Below the pieces are notes generated by a model that saw only the letters and a program-made list of their open reading frames with translations, ran no database searches and was not told where the DNA came from. A DNA stretch of 64,000 nt from a virus. Position numbers and translations under genes: made by a program. The stretch lies in UHGV virus genome UHGV-1451962. One strand, written 5' to 3'. Positions 27,403 through 35,357 of the stretch are shown here, piece by piece (positions within the stretch are counted from its first letter, which is position 1; the number at the start of each line of letters is the position of its first letter).

Positions 27403-28051
27403 ATTTTAATTCTATGGCTTTAATTTCCTTATAATTTTTAGCAGTATAAATTTGTGTTTTATATTGTTGCATTTTTTTATAATAAGGATAAACAAAATCA
27501 GAAATAGCTAAAGCTAAAGCAGTCAAATTTTCAACTGTCCAAGATGTACATTCTTCTTGGCGAGCATGCCATTCTAATCTAGGATTCTCTGCTCCAGCCT
27601 GAACTGCCATAGAATATTGATTCATATTTAGGCTAATTTCTGATTGATCTTCTTCTGTAACTCCATATTGCTTTCCATCAATCCAAGTCAAAGGATTATT
27701 AATGAGGAAATTAGCGAAAGCTTTTTTATTTTCTTCTTGTTTCATTTTTTGATATTCTTCTAAAGAATAGTAATATGTTAATTCATTTTTTTCATTATCA
27801 TATTTATAAAAATTAGGTTCATAATCTTCTGGAATATTACCATCAAAAGATAAGATTCTTACTGCATCAATAGAACCTGTCATATCTGAATTAGCCAAAA
27901 TGAAATGGCTATTGCAATCTGAGCCTATTACTCCTGTAGCTTCACCTTCCGAGCAAGCAATGACAATACTTGGGTTGGATTGTAATTTGATGTAGCGGAT
28001 TTCCGCAAGGATATCGACTACTATATTTTCTCTATTGATTAATAAATACAT
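27392..28051 (-). CDS. hypothetical protein; C-terminus resembles DUF4376-type phage (fibre-associated) domains
   Basis: 219 aa. Its ATG overlaps the RT stop (TAATG). The C-terminal ..TWIDGKQYGVTEEDQSEISLNMNQYS..WTVENLTALALAISDFVYPYYKKMQQYKTQIYTAKNYKEIKAIEL pattern recalls DUF4376 (from memory). Confidence 0.4.
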   Translation of the reverse strand: MYLLINRENIVVDILAEIRYIKLQSNPSIVIACSEGEATGVIGSDCNSHFILANSDMTGSIDAVRILSFDGNIPEDYEPNFYKYDNEKNELTYYYSLEEYQKMKQEENKKAFANFLINNPLTWIDGKQYGVTEEDQSEISLNMNQYSMAVQAGAENPRLEWHARQEECTSWTVENLTALALAISDFVYPYYKKMQQYKTQIYTAKNYKEIKAIELKYEN

Positions 28052-29307
28052 TATAATATTTCAACTCCTTTAAATAATGAATGGAAATAATTATCAAGAT
28101 TTTGTATAATATAAAAAGTAGTACCTTTATTTATATGTTCTCTAAAACCTCGATATGATTCTTGAATTTCTATATCAGTTATTTTACCTTGTAGCCAAAG
28201 TTGGTGCATTTTTCTCATTTTTCTATATTGTCGCTTTATTTTCTTTTTAAATGGAGTTTGAATAATTTTATTCGTATTAGTTAAATAAAAATCCCATTTT
28301 AAATATTTAAATGGATTATGTTTATCCGAACGTCTTTTATGAGGATAATTATTTTTATCTAGTTTTATTGGACTAATTTTAATTATTTTAGTTTTTCTTT
28401 TGTTACATTTTAAATGTATTTTATTTAATTCATTTTCAATTTTATTAAGACATTCTTTTAAATAATCTTTGTCATTATGCAAAATATAAATATCGTCCAT
28501 ATAACGTCCATAATATTTTAAATGCAAATGCTCTTTTGCATAATGGTCAATTCCATTTAATGCCAATAAAGCTAATAATTGAGATGCTTGACTACCTAAA
28601 CCTAAACTTTTATGATTAAATTCATAATAAGTACAATTTTTATAAAATTGTTTAGGATAAATTATCTTATATTTTTGTTTTTTGATGATATAGTATTGTT
28701 TATTAGGAATAGGAACTGTATCTTTTGTGACTGAAAAACAAAAGGTATCAATAATATAATCAATTAATTTAAATACTCGTTTTTCTTTAATATAATGTTT
28801 TGCCATTTGCTTTAAAGAATTATGGTCTATTGAATCAAAAAATTTTTGAATATCAATTCTTAAACCATAAAAAGATTTTCCTAAACCATATGTTCTGTGC
28901 GCTGCTTGTAAATGTTTACGCACTTCTAGCAAAGCAAAATCAATTCCTTTTCCTTTTAATGTAGCACAATTATCATAAATAAATTTTGGAGTTAGTTCTG
29001 GAATAAGAACTTGCGAACATAATGTATTTTGTGCCAATCTGTCATAAATATGGCACGCTCTTATATCTCTGGGTTTGCCCCGCTCAATTATACTAAAACT
29101 GTTAAAAACTAATTGTTCATAACTGTCATTTTCTAATTGTTCTTTAAGCGTTAAGATGTTATTTAATCTATTTTCTTCAAAATTAACTGTACTATCTTTC
29201 CATCTTACGTTTCGGCAAATAGAATAAGAAGAATCATAAAAAGCGTCAAAATTACAAAAACGCTGGAAAAGATTTTCTTCTATAAAAAATTCTCCTTTTT
29301 TTATCAT
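28051..29307 (-). CDS. DGR-type reverse transcriptase
   Basis: 418 aa with the YMDD catalytic box (..YGRYMDDIYILHND..) and the SLGLGSQASQLL segment matching the G-x-x-x-S-Q signature of DGR RTs. RT motifs 1-2 are present (..ERGKPRDIRACHIYDRLAQ..). It lies 282 nt downstream of a TR that matches a VR. Confidence 0.9.
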   Translation of the reverse strand: MIKKGEFFIEENLFQRFCNFDAFYDSSYSICRNVRWKDSTVNFEENRLNNILTLKEQLENDSYEQLVFNSFSIIERGKPRDIRACHIYDRLAQNTLCSQVLIPELTPKFIYDNCATLKGKGIDFALLEVRKHLQAAHRTYGLGKSFYGLRIDIQKFFDSIDHNSLKQMAKHYIKEKRVFKLIDYIIDTFCFSVTKDTVPIPNKQYYIIKKQKYKIIYPKQFYKNCTYYEFNHKSLGLGSQASQLLALLALNGIDHYAKEHLHLKYYGRYMDDIYILHNDKDYLKECLNKIENELNKIHLKCNKRKTKIIKISPIKLDKNNYPHKRRSDKHNPFKYLKWDFYLTNTNKIIQTPFKKKIKRQYRKMRKMHQLWLQGKITDIEIQESYRGFREHINKGTTFYIIQNLDNYFHSLFKGVEIL

Positions 29308-29589
29308 GCGGTGCTAGATTGTGTGCTCTGACACGCACATCCGCAATCTTAATTAATTATCTGTATAGATAAAAGGTTAAATTCTCCTTAAATGAAAGCT
29401 ATCTATTATAATCTAAGTCTTTTATTTAATATTTCCTCTCCTTCTTGGTTTTAAAACCAATGCGTCCAGAAAATACCAAAATAGATGAGTTATAACATAG
29501 GTTATAATTTTCTGGGGTAACACTTAGTCGTCTCAGTCGATGTCGCCTGCGGCTCCATCACCAGAGACAGTTAGAGTTCTCATCTAATC
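29308..29589 (-). ncRNA. TR-RT spacer; probable structured part of the DGR RNA
   Basis: No ORF. It contains a GC-rich segment next to the TR with GTCTC(29530-34)/GAGAC(29564-68) and GATG/CATC pairings. It also contains nested stems CCAGAAAAT(29466-74)/ATTTTCTGG(29507-15) and TTATAAC(29490-96)/GTTATAA(29501-07), a 16-nt perfect palindrome at 29445-60, and a GC-rich element (29308-29345) abutting the RT ATG. Confidence 0.5.
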
Positions 29590-29693
29590 GGGCGCGAGGT
29601 AATTGTTGTTGTTGTAGTTGGTATTGTTCGCATTACCATCAGAGTTGACATTGCACACATTGTTCGTGTTGTTCGAGTTGTAGTAGCGAGACC
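29590..29693 (-). repeat. DGR template repeat (TR)
   Basis: 104-nt match to 30388..30491 with 83 identities. On the coding (-) strand it reads as about 15 AAY codons (..TAC AAC TCG AAC AAC ACG AAC AAT GTG TGC AAT GTC AAC..). It is non-coding and lies between the Avd-like ORF and the RT. Confidence 0.9.
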
Positions 29694-29726
29694 CGCGATA
29701 TTTTAGAATTTAACCAAATAAAAAAA

Positions 29727-30191
29727 TTATTTGTATCGCTGAGAATAAATTAGATTATCTCTATTTATTCTATCAAGAAGATTTTGTTTTAATTTGTAAG
29801 TAAGTTTAGCAACATATTTGAAAGATTTATTTTTCTTTTTATTATTTAACCCATATTCATAAATACATAAATCTAATTGCCTTAAAATTGAATCACAATA
29901 TCTTATTGATTTATTAAAGTAATCTGCTCTTTCAACTAAAGTTTTTTTATTTTTTAGATTGATTAAACTAGCAGAGAAAGCATATCCATGTGCGTTTTTG
30001 GCACATTTTAAAATATCTGCACCAAAAGCTGAATAATAGTATGGATTACCAAGAATACCTGGTTTAATATGAGAACCATCATCTAATTCTTGATATGGAC
30101 GAACTAAAATTAATACTTGATGGACTAACTTTCTTGCATCATTTAAATAATCATTTTTAGATTGATGCCTATCTTTTTTTCTTACTGACAA
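29727..30191 (-). CDS. avd: Avd-like DGR accessory protein (by position, size and basic helical composition)
   Basis: 154-aa K/R-rich ORF with a TTG start 7 nt after AAAGGAGG. It occupies the canonical slot between target gene and TR. No sequence motif verified. Confidence 0.5.
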   Translation of the reverse strand: MSVRKKDRHQSKNDYLNDARKLVHQVLILVRPYQELDDGSHIKPGILGNPYYYSAFGADILKCAKNAHGYAFSASLINLKNKKTLVERADYFNKSIRYCDSILRQLDLCIYEYGLNNKKKNKSFKYVAKLTYKLKQNLLDRINRDNLIYSQRYK

Positions 30192-30225
30192 ATTAAAAAC
30201 CTCCTTTAAATAACGTACAAGAAAT

Positions 30226-30254
30226 ATTATACCAGAAAATTTTTAAAAAGTCAA
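30226..30254 (-). promoter_or_regulatory. consensus promoter for avd-TR-RT
   Basis: On the - strand: TTGACT (30254-30249), a 17-nt spacer ending in TGG, then TATAAT (30231-30226), about 35 nt upstream of the avd start. Confidence 0.65.
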
Positions 30255-30315
30255 AGAAAAAAAATTTTTAGAAAAAATTTTTTTCCCAGAAAAGGTGAAA
30301 GCATTTTTATACTAT

Positions 30316-30341
30316 GGCATTGGCCCTTTTGGGCCAATGCC
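30316..30341. promoter_or_regulatory. perfect GC-rich hairpin/cruciform just 3' of the VR
   Basis: GGCATTGGCCC (30316-30326), TTTT loop, GGGCCAATGCC (30331-30341). It lies 29 nt beyond the target stop codon. No U-tract follows on either strand. Confidence 0.6.
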
Positions 30342-30369
30342 AATATAACCTTACTGTATAACTTTACAG

Positions 30370-32133
30370 TTATCCAATAACGAAAGCGGGCGCGAGGTAA
30401 CGGTAGTTGGCGTAGTAGGTAAAGTCCGCACCACCATCAGAGTCGACACGGCACACATAGCCCGTGTAGTCCGAGTAGTAGTTGCGAGACCGCTCCCAAT
30501 ACCATTTGGAATCTCCTGAACTGTTACCATTAGCATCTTGAATGTTTTTTATACGGGAGCTGTCACTTGTGTAATAATCATAAGCAGCATTATATCCTTT
30601 AGTACATTCTGCATTGGAAACAGTAGAATTAGCAGTGCTGATTGGAGAATAACTATCTAATCCCATTTCTCTCTCAGAAGGAATCCAAACAGTTTCGTTA
30701 TTATAACTAACATTAGCACTTCTATTATCATCCCAATTATCGCAAGTACCTTTAGATACTGTTTTTATAGATGCTTTAGCAGCACAAGCATTATAAAAAT
30801 TTTGACAATAACTTCTAGCATTAGAACCAATCCATTGTGCGCTATTATCACCAAAAGTAGTCATATTCGGCAAGAGATAAACACTATGAAAAGCTAAAGT
30901 TTTATCTCCATCTTTGTCATAGCCAATACAACGCATTGTAACAGCATTTGCTCCTAAAACATTAGTAGATAAATTCATCTTTTTAGTTTTACCAACTAAA
31001 GCTTGACGTTCTGAAGCAGAAGAATTGTTAAGCCAAGACTTTAAGCCAGCCCACCAAGAAGCATCTCCCGCAGCACTCTCATTTCCCCAAGTCCAATATG
31101 TAGCAGTAGCAGTAATTTTTTTATTCGCGGGAGTTGTATAATTGGTACTGGCTGCTATTGATACAGTAATAGTAGCAGTTCCCGCGGTTGTACCATTGCC
31201 TTTAATGGTAATTGTTTTACCGCTTACTGTTGCTGAAGCCACATTAGAATTAGTAGAAGTTACAGAAATTGTACCAGTAGAATTAGTGGTCACAGTAACT
31301 TTTACACCAGTAGAATAATTAGATGCGTCAATAGAAACAGTAGAAGTGCTTAGACTTAATGTTCCTGTTGCTTTTTGAATAGACCAATCAACATTTTTCG
31401 CGGTTGTTGTCTTATCAGGCCATCTGTAATTATTTTTAGGAGTAAAAGTAGCTGTATATTTTCCTGCATTAATTCCCGATGTAGTTCCTCCAATAGTCAT
31501 GTAACTTGTATTATAATTTGACCAATTTGGACTTTGCGAATTGGCGTTATAAGTTAAAGTTCCAGTTTGAGAAGGAATAGGAACTGTTTTTCTTTCTACT
31601 GTTACAGAAAAAGTAGTAGTTTTAGTAATACTATTTTCTGTATAAGAAACAGTAATTGTTTGAGTACCAACTGTATTTAAAACAGAAGGTGAAGTTGTCC
31701 AACCAGAAACAGTAGCGGTTTTACCATCAGAATAAGTGGCAGTAACAGACATTCCGGCAGATTCAAATGTCTCGCCATATTCATAAATTGTCTTAGTTGG
31801 TTTTGTGCTTGTGATGCTGGTTAGTGCATGGATAACAGTAACTGCTTGCTCGGCGGTACAAGTAACTCCTCCTTCAGAGTAAGTAATAGTAACTTTAGTT
31901 ACTCCATCAGTTAAAGGAGAAGGTGTTACAGTATATCCAGTTACCGCAGTAGAAGAAACAACAATATTATCAATGGCATAATTGGCAGTTATAACCATTC
32001 CTGTTGTTTCAAATTCTTGTCCAGCAACGTAAGATGTACGGTTTGGTGGAGTAGTAACTTCAATAGAGTGGAGTGCTATTGAGCTTCCGCCACCTTTTCC
32101 GCCTTGTTCAGTTAAAATGCATTTAACAGGCAA
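30370..32133 (-). CDS. DGR target protein: Ig-like repeats plus a C-terminal lectin-fold-like variable domain (putative receptor-binding or fibre protein)
   Basis: The track ORF 30370..32154 begins inside its own SD (TTG ATA AGG AGG). The more likely start is the TTG at 32133, 9 nt after GGAGG. There are repeated ~90-aa segments (..VTGYTVTPSPLTDGVTKVTITYSEGGVTCTAEQAVTV.. / ..VSGWTTSPSVLNTVGTQTITVSYTENSITKTTTFSVTV..). The C-terminus ..WYWERSRNYYSDYTGYVCRVDSDGGADFTYYANYRYLAPAFVIG is the VR. Confidence 0.85.
   Translation of the reverse strand: MPVKCILTEQGGKGGGSSIALHSIEVTTPPNRTSYVAGQEFETTGMVITANYAIDNIVVSSTAVTGYTVTPSPLTDGVTKVTITYSEGGVTCTAEQAVTVIHALTSITSTKPTKTIYEYGETFESAGMSVTATYSDGKTATVSGWTTSPSVLNTVGTQTITVSYTENSITKTTTFSVTVERKTVPIPSQTGTLTYNANSQSPNWSNYNTSYMTIGGTTSGINAGKYTATFTPKNNYRWPDKTTTAKNVDWSIQKATGTLSLSTSTVSIDASNYSTGVKVTVTTNSTGTISVTSTNSNVASATVSGKTITIKGNGTTAGTATITVSIAASTNYTTPANKKITATATYWTWGNESAAGDASWWAGLKSWLNNSSASERQALVGKTKKMNLSTNVLGANAVTMRCIGYDKDGDKTLAFHSVYLLPNMTTFGDNSAQWIGSNARSYCQNFYNACAAKASIKTVSKGTCDNWDDNRSANVSYNNETVWIPSEREMGLDSYSPISTANSTVSNAECTKGYNAAYDYYTSDSSRIKNIQDANGNSSGDSKWYWERSRNYYSDYTGYVCRVDSDGGADFTYYANYRYLAPAFVIG
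30388..30491 (-). repeat. DGR variable repeat (VR), encoding the last ~35 codons of the target protein
   Basis: Pairs with the TR. There are 21 differences; 20 are at positions where the TR coding strand has A, and 14 of 15 TR AAY codons differ. The shared GC-rich 3' end CCTCGCGCCCG is IMH-like. Confidence 0.9.
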
Positions 32134-32199
32134 GGTATAAGACCTCCTTATCAAGAATTATTATTAGAGTTTTAAAACTCCATCATTATTTATAGAATA

Positions 32200-32211
32200 A
32201 AGTACACCTTT
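32200..32211. repeat. left arm of a perfect 12-bp inverted repeat (AAAGTACACCTT)
   Basis: Reverse complement of 32384..32395. Together the arms bound a 196-bp segment in the divergent intergenic region. Confidence 0.9.
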
Positions 32212-32239
32212 TAGATTAATTGGGAACGTACTTTCCATA

Positions 32240-32287
32240 AAAAATGTAAAATTGGGAAAAGGATATAAAAATATCCTTTTCCCAATA
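32240..32287 (-). terminator. perfect 16-bp-stem hairpin that acts as a terminator only for leftward transcription
   Basis: ATTGGGAAAAGGATAT (32252-32267), AAAA loop, ATATCCTTTTCCCAAT (32272-32287). Read on the - strand it is followed by TTTACATTTTTT. Read on the + strand it is followed by ATAAAAATAT, with no U-tract. Confidence 0.5.
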
Positions 32288-32308
32288 TAAAAATATATTC
32301 TAAAAGTT

Positions 32309-32337
32309 TGGATATCTTATCCTTTTCATCTATACTT
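32309..32337 (+). promoter_or_regulatory. promoter directed at the 32425 fibre gene
   Basis: TTGGAT (32309-32314), a 17-nt spacer, then TATACT (32332-32337). It lies inside the IR-bounded segment. Confidence 0.5.
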
Positions 32338-32383
32338 AAAGATTATTTTAATTAATTTTCCTTAGATTGACCAATGTTTCATA

Positions 32384-32395
32384 AGGTGTACTTTT
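32384..32395. repeat. right arm of the 12-bp inverted repeat (AAGGTGTACTTT)
   Basis: Perfect reverse complement of 32200..32211. Confidence 0.9.
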
Positions 32396-32424
32396 TAAAC
32401 TTATATTTTGAAAGGAGTTTTTAA

Positions 32425-34170
32425 ATGGCTGTTCAATGTGTACTTGTCGGAAAAGGCAAGGATGATGTATTTACTGCTGTTTATGGCGAAACTACATTTG
32501 ATAAAGTGTTAAAAGCTTATAATGAAAATAAAGTAGTTCAAGTGATTTATCAAAATCGTATTTATTATTTAGATAATACTACTGTTGTAGATTCTCCTGA
32601 AGCATTTTCTTTTATTTCTGCTTTTAGTAATCAAAATGATGAAGCTGGTGAAATAAAGCATTATGTAATAAGTTTAATGACAGGAGATAGTTGGTCTGGG
32701 CCTTTCTTACAGAAATCTACTCCAGCAACTCACGCGAATACTCATAGTAAAAATGGTGATGATCCACTTACCCCCGCAGATATTGGAGCTATGGAATTAT
32801 CAGAAAATGTTCTTAAACAATCAAATGAAGATATTACTTCTCAAGTAGCGCAAGCTTTATTTGGGGATTTAGTTCCTTTTAGCGGTGGAACCATGACTGG
32901 TTTGTTAAATGTTCTTACTCCTGTTAGAGATAGTAATGCTACTACTAAAAAGTATGTAGATGATGCTTTGAGTGAGAAAATTGGAATGGATGGCATTGGC
33001 GATTTGCATGTATGGAAGAAGACTATAATAACAAAACAGGAGATTCCAGCAAGTTTTACTTTAGGTGATGTACACTCTGGTTCGTTTCGTTTTGTTAGTG
33101 GTGAAACTAATGTGTTGTTAGTAGGTACTCCTAAAGTTAATGAGAGTGGTGTCGTTACCTTAACAAACTCTGCGCAGTATAATTTTAATTATAATTCTTC
33201 ATCTCCTAGTATATCTGATCTGCGAGGACAGTATTGCATGTTTACCATGATAGCCGATCAATTTTCTAGTTTTACTGCCAATAAAGTTTTTTATATACCC
33301 ACTGATGCAAACTATATTTCTTTATCAAGTTCTAAAAATATTACTAAATATCAAGATGTTAATGGTACACCTAAAATTCCTGCCGAAGTAACTACTACCT
33401 ATCCCGCATCTACTAATCCCAATGCGTATCAAGAGGGGAGCGATGCAAAACCAGCAGGATATGTACTTGGTAATGTGATAACAGGTTCATTTTGTATTGG
33501 TAATACAACAGCACCTACGAGAGCTGCTTATTATGTCGCATCTGATATTTCTGTATCTGATAATGGTGTTTTATCTATTTCAACACAAACAAATATAACT
33601 ATTGGTGGTAATTTTTTTGTATCTAGCCGTGATTTAATTGCTGGTAAATTTATACAAATTTATAATAAAGGGTCTATGTCTTCTGTTTTATCTGAACCAT
33701 TCACAACAGTACCAGGCCCAATTATTTATATTCCGAATGATGTAAACTTAACGTCTGGCGGTGATGGAAATTTAAATTTATATATTGATCGCTACCAACC
33801 TATTACTGGCTACGCTGCTATCCCCGCAGGCACCACTATTGAATATCTGGGGAAGTTGGGAGATAAGACTAGGGTAATAATTGGCTCGTATATTGGGACA
33901 GGGGTCTGCGGGGCAGAGAATCCGACCAAAATAAAAACGAGTTTTTTACCGAAACTTGTAGCAATAAATGGAGTAGGAAATACCGGCAGTACGGGCATTA
34001 TTCTGTTTTTTCGAGATATGAACTATGCGTTCTCAGAAATCGGCTCAAGTACCAACTTTAACTTTACTAATATAACCTGGTTATCAGACGGAGTACATTG
34101 GTATTCTAGCAAAGTCCTTATGCAGGGGAATAAGCAGGGGGCAATTTATAAATACATTGTTATCGGTTAA
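32425..34170 (+). CDS. tail fibre protein (581 aa)
   Basis: SD GAAAGGAGTTTTTAA-ATG. It contains ..THANTHSKNGDDPLTPADIGA.. and ..FSGGTMTGLLNVLTPVRDSNATTKKYVDDAL.., motifs typical of phage tail fibres (from memory). The C-terminal ~125 aa have a distinct, GC-richer composition. Confidence 0.7.
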   Translation: MAVQCVLVGKGKDDVFTAVYGETTFDKVLKAYNENKVVQVIYQNRIYYLDNTTVVDSPEAFSFISAFSNQNDEAGEIKHYVISLMTGDSWSGPFLQKSTPATHANTHSKNGDDPLTPADIGAMELSENVLKQSNEDITSQVAQALFGDLVPFSGGTMTGLLNVLTPVRDSNATTKKYVDDALSEKIGMDGIGDLHVWKKTIITKQEIPASFTLGDVHSGSFRFVSGETNVLLVGTPKVNESGVVTLTNSAQYNFNYNSSSPSISDLRGQYCMFTMIADQFSSFTANKVFYIPTDANYISLSSSKNITKYQDVNGTPKIPAEVTTTYPASTNPNAYQEGSDAKPAGYVLGNVITGSFCIGNTTAPTRAAYYVASDISVSDNGVLSISTQTNITIGGNFFVSSRDLIAGKFIQIYNKGSMSSVLSEPFTTVPGPIIYIPNDVNLTSGGDGNLNLYIDRYQPITGYAAIPAGTTIEYLGKLGDKTRVIIGSYIGTGVCGAENPTKIKTSFLPKLVAINGVGNTGSTGIILFFRDMNYAFSEIGSSTNFNFTNITWLSDGVHWYSSKVLMQGNKQGAIYKYIVIG

Positions 34171-34222
34171 AAAAAGAATTTTAATGTACTACATCAACAA
34201 CCAAAAGGAGGAAATAAATTAA

Positions 34223-34534
34223 ATGTTTTATATTAATTCAATAAAACAAAATAATAATTATGGTAATCCTATGGGTCAATATTTTAAAGACTCAATACAA
34301 TTACCAGATGAATTATTAAACAATTATCTTGAAACAAAAGGATTTTGTAATTTTGAAATTCAAGATAATATTATTACAAAAATAATTGTAAATCAAAATG
34401 ATTTAGATGATTATAATAATAACCATCTAGAGGTTAAACCAGAACCATCAGCAGAGCAAGATATAAATGCAATGTTAGTAGACCAAGAATATAGAATAAC
34501 ATTACTAGAATTAGGTATGAAAGGAGATTCCTAA
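34223..34534 (+). CDS. XkdW-like small fibre-associated protein
   Basis: 103 aa with SD AAAAGGAGGAAATAAATTAA-ATG. The size and the C-terminal ..DINAMLVDQEYRITLLELG.. resemble PBSX XkdW-type proteins that follow fibre genes (from memory). Confidence 0.35.
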   Translation: MFYINSIKQNNNYGNPMGQYFKDSIQLPDELLNNYLETKGFCNFEIQDNIITKIIVNQNDLDDYNNNHLEVKPEPSAEQDINAMLVDQEYRITLLELGMKGDS

Positions 34535-34668
34535 TGTTATATAGAGTTTTAAAAAGAATGATTGAAGCAGGTCAAACAGAAGGCCTGCAAGAAAAAATAG
34601 ATATTTTCTTTGCGGCTGGCCGCATTACCGCAGACCAATACACTGAACTCACTAAATTATTATCATAA
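34534..34668 (+). CDS. XkdX-like small protein (44 aa; absent from the ORF track)
   Basis: The ATG overlaps the previous stop (TAATG). My translation is MLYRVLKRMIEAGQTEGLQEKIDIFFAAGRITADQYTELTKLLS. The ..G.IT..QY.ELT.. pattern and the position after the fibre and XkdW-like genes match XkdX-family proteins (from memory). Confidence 0.45.
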   Translation: MLYRVLKRMIEAGQTEGLQEKIDIFFAAGRITADQYTELTKLLS

Positions 34669-34689
34669 TTCCCAAAATTTTTGGGAATT
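34667..34689 (+). terminator. hairpin at the end of the fibre operon, just upstream of the recombinase gene
   Basis: AATTCCCAAAA (34667-34677), T, TTTTGGGAATT (34679-34689): perfect 11-bp arms. The stem is AT-rich and the U-tract is weak (TTTAG), so it could equally be an operator. Confidence 0.35.
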
Positions 34690-34730
34690 TTAGATTAATC
34701 GTCTACTAATAATTTTCTTATATAGTAGAG

Positions 34731-35357
34731 GTGAAAAAGGTGTTATATGGTTATGCAAGAGTTTCTTCCCGCGACCAAAATATAGATAGACAAATAATTG
34801 CATTAAAAGAGGTCGGCGTAGAAGAAGAAAATATCTTCATAGATAAACAATCAGGTAAAGATTTTAATAGACCTTCTTATCAAGAATTATTAGAAACAAT
34901 TAAAACAGGAGATATGGTAATTATAAAATCCATAGATAGATTAGGTCGAAATTATTCAGAAATTTTAGAACAGTGGAGAATTATTACTAAAGTTCTGAAT
35001 GTAGATATTAAAGTTATTGATATGCCGTTACTCGATACCTCCTACGGGGATGGTACATTAAATAACTTTATAGCTGATTTAGTTTTACAAATTCTCTCTT
35101 TTCAGGCAGAACAAGAGAGAATTTGTATTAAACAGCGACAAGCAGAAGGAATAGCTGCTGCAAAACAAAAAGGAGTTAAATTTGGCCGACCCCGCAAACA
35201 GCTTCCTTCTAATTTTGAAGATTTATATTATAGATATTTAAATAATGAACCAGTGGATAGATTATCAAAAGATTGTAAAGGATTATCTAAATCTACTTTG
35301 CGGTTGCGACTACAAGAACGTCATTCTAAAGATAAAGCATTGGGTGTAATTATTTAA
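34731..35357 (+). CDS. small serine recombinase (resolvase/invertase family)
   Basis: 208 aa with a GTG start after SD GAGGTGAAAAAG. The N-terminal catalytic region is VLYGYARVSSRDQNIDRQ...DRLGRN, and there is a C-terminal HTH-like region after ..GVKFGRPRK... The size and layout match the Hin/Gin/resolvase type, not a large serine integrase. Confidence 0.85.
   Translation: MKKVLYGYARVSSRDQNIDRQIIALKEVGVEEENIFIDKQSGKDFNRPSYQELLETIKTGDMVIIKSIDRLGRNYSEILEQWRIITKVLNVDIKVIDMPLLDTSYGDGTLNNFIADLVLQILSFQAEQERICIKQRQAEGIAAAKQKGVKFGRPRKQLPSNFEDLYYRYLNNEPVDRLSKDCKGLSKSTLRLRLQERHSKDKALGVII

Follow-up and report, generated by a model that had tools for sequence, protein, structure and literature searches.

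We analyzed a 64,000-nucleotide stretch of the UHGV virus genome UHGV-1451962 (hereafter the window), centring on a short segment that separates two divergent genes and is bounded by a perfect 12-bp inverted repeat. The window is part of a large siphophage, whose genome is about 137 kb long according to public contigs. To the left of the segment, on the minus strand, lies the target gene of a diversity-generating retroelement (DGR; 30370-32133), which codes for a 587-residue protein with Big_3 domains and a C-terminal variable repeat (VR) and begins with a TTG at 32133 behind AAGGAGG. To its right, on the plus strand, lies a fibre gene for a 581-residue protein (32425-34170, with an ATG start at 32425), and further along the same strand is the gene for a small serine recombinase (34740-35357). 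The latter has 205 residues when counted from the GTG at 34740, which is the start in public assemblies; the open reading frame (ORF) itself opens at 34731. The spacer between the two divergent start codons covers 32134-32424 (291 bp), and the left arm of the inverted repeat is 66 bp from the start codon of the DGR target. The DGR is genuine: a reverse transcriptase is encoded at 28051-29307 (RVT_1, phrog_1423) together with an Avd-sized ORF; the template repeat (TR; 29586-29693) and the VR (30384-30491) form a 108-nt pair with 80% identity, whose mismatches in the repeat core are TR adenines; and the VR is placed at the 3' end of the target gene.

The left arm (AAAGTACACCTT, plus strand) occupies 32199-32210, with a proposed 2-bp crossover core AC at 32204-32205, while the right arm (AAGGTGTACTTT, plus strand) occupies 32383-32394, with the corresponding core GT at 32388-32389. 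A first-pass annotation made from the DNA letters had called this perfect repeat correctly, but placed it one base too high (32200-32211 and 32384-32395). The 172-bp interior (32211-32382) is non-coding and falls between the two start codons, and each of the 12-mer arms is unique in the window. By statistics alone the repeat is insignificant. The annotation had put the probability of a chance occurrence at about 1%; instead, when the 291-bp spacer was dinucleotide-shuffled 5000 times, such a pair arose in 3.8% of cases. Counting perfect repeats no shorter than 12 bp whose arms are 20-400 bp apart, the whole window has 11 distinct ones, against 7.4 +/- 2.6 in dinucleotide shuffles, and 13 of 100 window shuffles reach 11 pairs. 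The significance of the repeat hence comes from comparative evidence and not from statistics.

Both orientations of the segment are encountered among public assemblies of the close lineage. Taking the orientation in the window as native, 19 contigs show both native junctions and one further contig (L028) shows the native right junction only, with the remaining three being of a different kind. In L026 (ERZ27289073, 11.7 kb), the reverse-complemented stretch is the 171-bp interior, bounded precisely by the inner edges of both arms, and its flanks are intact, with the 587-residue target gene on the left and the fibre gene, two small ORFs and the recombinase gene on the right. In L025 (ERZ27287344, k = 141), positions 1-262 match the native interior, the right arm and the fibre flank of the same fibre allele exactly in reverse complement, after which the inverted right junction follows; the contig thus joins one native and one inverted junction. 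Such a path requires reads of both orientations, because a 12-bp repeat cannot create it at k = 141. The third contig, L027 (Logan, SRR7658621), begins exactly at 32383, the first base of the right arm, the point at which the presence of both orientations would make a de Bruijn graph branch. The inverted forms are found in two fibre-allele backgrounds (P0006 and P0019), implying that the inversion happened more than once. Both orientations therefore exist in natural populations, with the inversion being evident at the assembly level and the inverted state being the minority state everywhere. A contig from a more distant relative (L029; IMGVR_UViG_3300045988_084596, 146 kb) ends 55 bp from the inner edge of its left arm (L029 1-55); this is suggestive only, and would fit a graph branch at the switch at k = 55.

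We examined the conservation of the segment at two evolutionary depths. The close relatives are syntenic contigs from about 20 samples, recovered through exact-protein look-ups and 94-99.9% identical to the window; the spacers of the first 14 of these all have the same orientation as the window. The left arm is invariant in 19 close relatives. In one clade (clade 2; L009-L013) the right arm reads AAAGTGTACTTT, with a G-to-A change that leaves one mismatch to the unchanged left arm. Variable alignment columns make up 3.8% of the 291-bp spacer and 4.1% of 32199-32394, compared with 20% of the target gene outside the VR and 36% of the fibre N-terminus. For distant relatives, IMG/VR was searched with the recombinase, which gave 80 loci, and the closest 32 were taken. 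These come from the same phage group, on contigs 75-148 kb long, and show 68-74% identity at the protein and 63-70% at the nucleotide level; in all lineages the switch has a homologue of the DGR target on its left. An inverted repeat is present at the homologous place in 29 of the 32 loci, in three variants with arms of 12-14 bp: L029 and L033-L036 have 14-bp arms (AAAAAGTACACTTT and AAAGTGTACTTTTT) around a 147-bp interior; L031 and L032 have 12-bp arms (GAAAAAGTACAC and GTGTACTTTTTC) around a 152-bp interior; and L037 and L040-L060 have 13-bp arms (AAAAAGTACACTT and AAGTGTACTTTTT) around an interior of 150-151 bp. The arm core AAAGT-AC-AC (AAAGTACAC) is invariant in the 29 distant relatives. 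Arm position 10 is a C:G pair in the window and a T:A pair in the distant relatives, a compensatory change for which clade 2 provides the one-sided intermediate. Hence, the arms are maintained as an inverted repeat even where nucleotide identity has dropped to 63-70%.

The group comprising L031 and L032 (group B) has a distinct arrangement: the fibre gene and the two small ORFs are missing, and the switch is about 120 bp upstream of the recombinase gene (L031 1801-2700), which carries an in-frame fusion to a remnant of the fibre start (MAVKC...).

Within the interior, the best-supported regulatory element is a predicted intrinsic terminator that would be read leftward (32241-32286, minus strand), with a stem at 32286-32251 followed by TTTTACATTTT. 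Positions 32251-32266 pair with 32271-32286 in 16 perfect pairs around a 4-nt loop, and the T-rich tail exists on the minus strand only; both the sequence and a terminator scan bear out the earlier description of a 16-bp hairpin with a U-rich tail in the leftward reading alone. The lower stem and the T-tract are kept in all lineages, and one-sided changes in the stem remain G.U pairs only on the strand with the U-tract, consistent with an RNA terminator acting on leftward transcripts of the native orientation. When L026 is scanned, this terminator turns up on the plus strand, facing the fibre gene.

The promoter elements are less clear-cut. A rightward promoter candidate, P1 (TTGGAT-17-TATACT; 32308-32336, plus strand), has its -35 at 32308-32313 and its -10 at 32331-32336, one base lower than originally described. 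The TATA of its -10 is invariant in all lineages, with L026 having TATACC, but its -35 is not conserved in distant relatives and overlaps a small palindrome, GGATA-TCT-TATCC (32310-32322), the arms of which co-vary (AGGTA/TACCT in L037 and L040; GAGTA/TACTC in L031 and L033). At the position equivalent to P1, the more divergent L075 has TTGACG-16-TATACA. A second rightward candidate, P2 (TTGACC-16-TACTTT; 32367-32394, plus strand), has its -35 in the segment (32367-32372) and a -10-like element in the right arm. In all lineages a TTG[A/G/C]CC is held 15-16 nt from the TACTTT though the sequence of the spacer between them diverges; judged by this pattern, P2 may be a promoter. Whichever of the two is real, the promoter is predicted to serve the fibre gene in the native orientation and, once the segment has flipped, the DGR target; this prediction is independent of the candidate because both P1 and P2 point outward through the right arm. 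A weak leftward promoter-like site reported earlier (TTGGTC-18-TAAAAT) is likewise present one base lower (32345-32374, minus strand; -35 at 32374-32369 and -10 at 32350-32345), but its -10 is not conserved in distant relatives, and it is probably not a functional part of the segment. The cross-lineage alignment also keeps a small hairpin beside the left arm, and an A-run followed by AAAATTGGGAAA ahead of the large hairpin. As candidate regulator sites, TTTTAGATTAAT and TTGGGAA were considered and rejected: they are common to the region upstream of the recombinase gene, yet they are not enriched in the window.

The recombinase has the catalytic domain with the serine motif and the C-terminal DNA-binding domain typical of small serine recombinases. 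It matches PF00239 over residues 6-149 (E = 3e-30) and phrog_125, which has the generic label 'DNA invertase'. The earlier description of a Hin/Gin/resolvase-type protein encoded 2.3 kb away holds as far as a serine recombinase at 34731 (or 34740) is concerned, but the protein is nearer to Sin/Bin3, its closest solved relative (E = 7e-36, residues 5-187), than to the Gin structures (E = 2.5e-14), so that by its closest relatives it does not belong to the Hin family. Its GYARVSSRDQ aligns with the GYARVSSLDQ of Sin, containing the YARVSS catalytic motif. The gene is syntenic with the switch in all relatives.

Each arm is embedded in a longer predicted crossover site of 26 bp that forms an imperfect palindrome of 12 + 2 + 12 bp. 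The left site is ATAGAATAAAGT-AC-ACCTTTTAGATT (32192-32217, plus strand), the right one GTTTCATAAGGT-GT-ACTTTTTAAACT (32376-32401, plus strand), and the half-sites have the consensus of an A-tract followed by (A/G)GT. This is the layout of the hix, gix and res site I crossover sites. We scored the dyad as matches over the 12 + 2 + 12 bp at a pre-specified centre, namely the AC/GT in the middle of the arm. Out of 12, the left and right sites score 6 and 7 in the window, 6 and 8 in L009, 9 and 8 in L033, 10 and 6 in L031, 9 and 6 in L037, and 9 and 5 in L040, with the background having a mean of 3.3 and a probability of 0.1-0.2% for a score of at least 9. The sites thus have half-sites of about 12 bp, a dyad and an AC/GT core in both arms, as is expected of sites for small serine recombinases, and within the window the motif with the right cores is matched only by the two arms.

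Homologues of the recombinase with 51-59% identity, in unrelated contigs of higher G+C content (L061, L068/69, L072/76, L075 and L084), point to the same type of site. They lie 13-324 bp from AAAGT-NN-AC(C/T)TT dyads, which flank segments of 108-145 bp; the motif has a density of 0.154 per kb within 700 bp of the recombinase gene as against 0.035 per kb elsewhere. In L061 (5619-5767) the two sites contain AATGTGTACTTT and AAAGTACACCTT, the latter being the window's own 12-mer. L068 (753-890) has TTACAAAAAAGT-GT-ACCTTTTTGTAA, while L072/76 (L072 5595-5730) and L084 (4278-4436) share (G)CAAAAAGT-AT-ACTTTTTG(C), and L075 (5906-6084) has a 16-bp repeat, AGTGTACCTTTTGACA. The dyads adjoining these homologues tie the recombinase family to this motif. 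In light of this association, the synteny of the gene with the switch, its proximity to the switch in group B and the lack of another recombinase among the roughly 40 of 51 window genes scanned, we infer that the neighbouring recombinase catalyses the inversion; although Sin-like by sequence, it would behave like an invertase.

Like known invertons, the segment is thus flanked by inverted repeats (12-bp arms here, 12-14 bp in relatives) and has a gene for a site-specific recombinase of the PF00239 family 2.3 kb away. The reading that we favour, and hold to be fairly probable, is that 32211-32382 is a site-specifically invertible control cassette that toggles between the fibre and the DGR target. 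The first-pass annotation had advanced the same interpretation, and it was supported by the comparisons of orientation, arm conservation and recombinase sites, none of which refuted it. In the proposed mechanism, the Sin-like recombinase (34740-35357) would cut at the 2-bp cores of the two inverted crossover sites and flip the 172-bp segment. In the native state, which is that of the window and the majority, the promoter would read through the right arm into the fibre operon, with the terminator stopping leftward transcription into the operon of the DGR target. In the inverted state, the promoter would instead read through the left arm into the DGR target, and the terminator would stand before the fibre gene, blocking rightward transcription. 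The change of expression on inversion is deduced from the layout of these elements, and the two proteins would be alternative receptor-binding proteins with toggled expression.

Several observations weigh against this reading. The evidence on orientation comes from public assemblies, and as a consensus the inverted form is rare: one inverted, one mixed and one break at the arm, versus the 19 native contigs and L028. All 29 of the 29 distant loci recovered via the recombinase are native, a flank-specific pattern for the inverted left junction had no match in IMG/VR, and no inverted contig was seen in clade 2, the arms of which are mismatched. The dyad symmetry in the window is modest (6/12 and 7/12). 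The promoter assignments are weak, given the unconserved -35 of P1, the TATACC of L026 and the poor -10 of P2 (TACTTT). Beyond a short N-terminal motif, the DGR target and fibre proteins share no homology, which makes their being alternatives at one docking site a tentative assumption. As to the enzyme, its closest solved relative acts on a different arrangement of sites from the inverted ones found here, no accessory sites were identified, and no head-to-tail repeats like those of Sin site II were recognised in or around the arms. Finally, no other recombinase was found among about 40 of the 51 window genes that were scanned, and the window represents 64 kb of the 137-kb genome.

That there is no switch at all, and that a chance repeat in a static divergent promoter region has been combined with inverted contigs arising as assembly or library artefacts, was close to our first view, which was based on the uniform orientation, the mismatch in clade 2 and the window-wide chance rate of such repeats. 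While 12-bp repeats are indeed as frequent in the window as expected by chance and nearly all assemblies have one orientation, this view was overturned by L025, L026 and L027: without spanning reads, a 12-bp repeat cannot give rise to k-mers of inverted junctions at k = 119 and k = 141, three independent samples agree on the same 12-bp boundaries, and the arms are kept with a compensatory change in diverged lineages. We now regard it as hardly credible. If the inversion is real, it might still be due to host recombination, template switching at the short repeat or a recombinase encoded elsewhere, with the Sin-like protein being a multimer resolvase. The resolvase Sin being the closest solved relative, the 2.3 kb between the recombinase gene and the switch and the 73 kb of genome beyond the examined window would all be compatible with this. 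However, homologues in unrelated contigs directly adjoin the same dyad motif, with the identical 12-mer in L061; each arm lies within a 12 + 2 + 12 palindrome; the arms co-vary over a large divergence; and the inversion recurs in two allele backgrounds. Together these make a source other than the neighbouring recombinase quite improbable.

A less drastic departure from the toggle accepts a recombinase-driven inversion but limits its outcome to switching a single gene on and off, for instance by placing the terminator before a fibre-recombinase-lysis operon, or to mere tuning, in which case the DGR target would have a promoter of its own or be on in both states. The terminator is the sole robustly supported regulatory element, the promoter calls being weak. 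In group B, the switch is followed on its right by the recombinase gene and not by a fibre gene, and in the other members of the family the segment precedes a single downstream gene. Moreover, VR diversity is found in all relatives, so the DGR target is in use despite the near-uniform 'fibre' orientation. As opposed to this, no conserved promoter-like element is seen in the 66-bp left flank, a homologue of the DGR target is found left of the switch in every lineage, and the conserved outward promoter elements would, by geometry, face the target gene after inversion. We therefore consider a one-gene or tuning role rather unlikely and retain the toggle between the fibre and the DGR target as the better account. 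Two other explanations of inverted repeats in this region were tried and rejected. The 12-bp repeat could form a long-range RNA helix, and both strands fold well (z = -4.7 and -5.2), but the repeat is better accounted for by the observed inversion of the DNA. The other candidate, a Mu-like coding inversion based on a longer inverted repeat (30507-30539 and 33016-33048), fails because the two reading frames are one base apart.

The segment can be compared with several well-studied systems. In Salmonella, the small serine recombinase Hin inverts the promoter-bearing H segment at dyad sites of about 26 bp that have a 2-bp core and about 14 bp identical between the sites; hin lies within its 1-kb segment, needs Fis and an enhancer, and switches one operon on and off. 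The locus resembles it in having a serine recombinase, a promoter segment and dyad sites of about 26 bp. It differs in that the segment is only 172 bp long and non-coding, with the recombinase gene 2.3 kb outside; in that the segment has a divergent operon on either side and includes a terminator as well; and in that the recombinase is nearer to Sin than to Gin, the sole Hin/Gin-family invertase among the solved-structure matches. No Fis enhancer was identified, and a 24-nt repeat with one copy in the recombinase ORF and the other beside the left arm is not conserved in distant relatives. In the phages Mu and P1, the serine invertases Gin and Cin choose between tail-fibre sets and thereby alter host range. 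Those systems invert coding DNA, namely C-terminal fibre exons behind a fixed promoter, whereas here a promoter/terminator cassette alone is inverted and no alternative fibre coding sequence is contained in it. In Campylobacter fetus, one promoter on the invertible sap element alternately drives two oppositely oriented flanking surface-protein genes; the element is at least 6.2 kb long and RecA-dependent. Unlike the segment described here, it is bacterial and has neither a dedicated serine recombinase nor a terminator. For inversion by a resolvase-type protein there is a precedent in the beta recombinase of pSM19035, which can invert when its sites are inverted.

Serine recombinases that invert promoters are known from Mpi as well as from Hin. 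The switches of fimS (FimB/FimE), the Bacteroides PS promoters (Mpi) and Clostridioides difficile RecV are encoded by bacteria, and those of fimS and RecV use tyrosine recombinases; against the Mpi family model the phage recombinase reaches 52 bits, compared with a cut-off of 272. Resolution by Sin takes place between directly repeated resH sites of 86 bp and depends on site II and HU (PMC2764113; PMC2428073). Although Sin is the closest solved relative by sequence, the sites at our locus are inverted, and thus do not form a composite direct-repeat site of the Sin/beta type. Bacterial invertons are short intergenic cassettes that invert a promoter or a terminator and have inverted repeats of 9-30 bp, both orientations of which can be detected in metagenomes (PMC13501310); the same 2026 article describes viral invertons as so far only 'suggested'. 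The choice of fibres by Mu Gin and P1 Cin is cited in PMC12823448. With respect to the DGR, the locus is comparable to BPP-1 Mtd in its target gene with adenine-specific TR-to-VR differences, its reverse transcriptase and its Avd-sized ORF; we found in the literature, and know of, no control of the BPP-1 target gene by DNA inversion. A full-text literature search likewise returned no report of a phage promoter inverton controlling receptor-binding genes or a DGR target, in agreement with the earlier suggestion that a promoter flip coupled to a DGR would be new.

A wider family probably stands behind the switch. We give roughly even chances to a more general proposal: that a clade of Sin-like serine invertases flips promoter/terminator cassettes of 110-170 bp at AAAGT-NN-AC(C/T)TT dyad sites, forming a wider class of phage invertons of which this switch would be the founding example, in which the cassette of the present lineage would hedge bets by toggling between a receptor-binding protein hypermutated by the DGR and a conventional, cassette-exchanged fibre, and in which the same module elsewhere may control genes such as the C5 DNA methyltransferase of L061. 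If this were true, the phage would combine three mechanisms of host-range diversification at one locus. Two ways of varying phage host range are known, the inversion of fibre coding segments (Mu, P1) and DGR hypermutation (BPP-1); a promoter flip that chooses between a DGR-diversified protein and a conventional fibre would add a third layer regulating both, and invertons would be used by abundant gut phages and not by bacteria only. Of direct use are the compact switch itself, which measures 172 bp and has a defined site motif, the recombinase as its candidate cognate enzyme and a prediction that PhaseFinder-type virome surveys can test. In synthetic biology for Gram-positive organisms, the enzyme and its sites could also serve as a small orthogonal invertase.

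The genes downstream of the related modules are diverse. The one in L061 is a C5 DNA methyltransferase judging from the motifs FSGCGG, PCQDFS, ENV and QIGNAVPP; that in L075 codes for a 465-residue protein with repeated C-terminal CxxC motifs resembling zinc ribbons; and that in L084 codes for a small protein whose N-terminal part has CxxC motifs and whose C-terminal half is hydrophobic. In each of these modules the recombinase homologue comes first and the two dyad sites follow it. Several further searches were negative. INPHARED held no close relative by blastn over 5.1 kb, and the upstream regions of three recombinase homologues from it (L016-L018) have no shared motif. GTDB genomes held no relative, neither the fibre nor the hairpin was found in IMG/VR, and exact-protein look-ups with the recombinase and a 103-residue protein returned the source contigs only. 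Among JGI metagenome contigs a degenerate junction pattern had no match, while a protein search gave one short native contig (L028). An Rfam scan over 29300-35000 gave nothing above chance.

The fibre gene beside the switch has its own mode of variation. Between genomes that are elsewhere 94-99% identical, its C-terminal two-thirds (33016-34201, codons about 198-581) are swapped for alleles that are either unrelated or 50-60% identical. About 40 alleles were returned by the homologue search, and homologues of the fibre protein number in the hundreds. The receptor-binding part of the fibre hence undergoes cassette-type exchange, for which the conserved spacer could also be a homologous anchor. 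The fibre and DGR-target proteins have an N-terminal M-x-V/L-K/Q-C-I/V-L in common (MPVKCILTEQGGKG in the DGR target, 32133-32090; MAVQCVLVGKGK in the fibre, 32425-32460), which recurs in the counterpart genes of distant relatives and hints at a common docking peptide or processing signal. Both proteins also end in VIG (30370-30381 and 34159-34170).

Elsewhere, the window codes for a 2871-residue tape-measure protein, a DnaE-type polymerase, NrdD, DnaB, gyrase A and a ligase. Around the DGR, three assemblies (L005, L010 and L014) end within the VR (at about 30413-30481 of the window), as is expected if the DGR generates heterogeneity within a sample. Just downstream of the VR there is a G+C-rich 28-bp palindrome (30315-30342), which may be a DGR target-recognition hairpin or a terminator.

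The 24-nt direct repeat mentioned above has copies with 23 of 24 positions identical in the 5' untranslated region and ribosome-binding site of the DGR target (32140-32163, 36 bp outside the left arm) and in the recombinase ORF (34869-34892, codons RPSYQELL). Its score was reached in none of 500 shuffles and none of 211 other chunks of the window. Both copies are invariant in close relatives, and it is the spacer copy that is missing in distant ones. The repeat would make the mRNAs of the DGR target and the recombinase complementary over 24 nt, with one G.U pair. The recombinase ORF additionally contains a 14-bp perfect palindrome (ACAAATTCTCTCTT ... AAGAGAGAATTTGT) at 35086-35127, in the region of helix E. 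In L033-L060, an in-frame TAG occurs where the recombinase of the window has Gln (e.g. L040 5001-5597; L040 2977), and several more are found in the gene that follows the switch, a pattern indicative of a recoding of TAG to Gln in these lineages; the window lineage uses the standard code.

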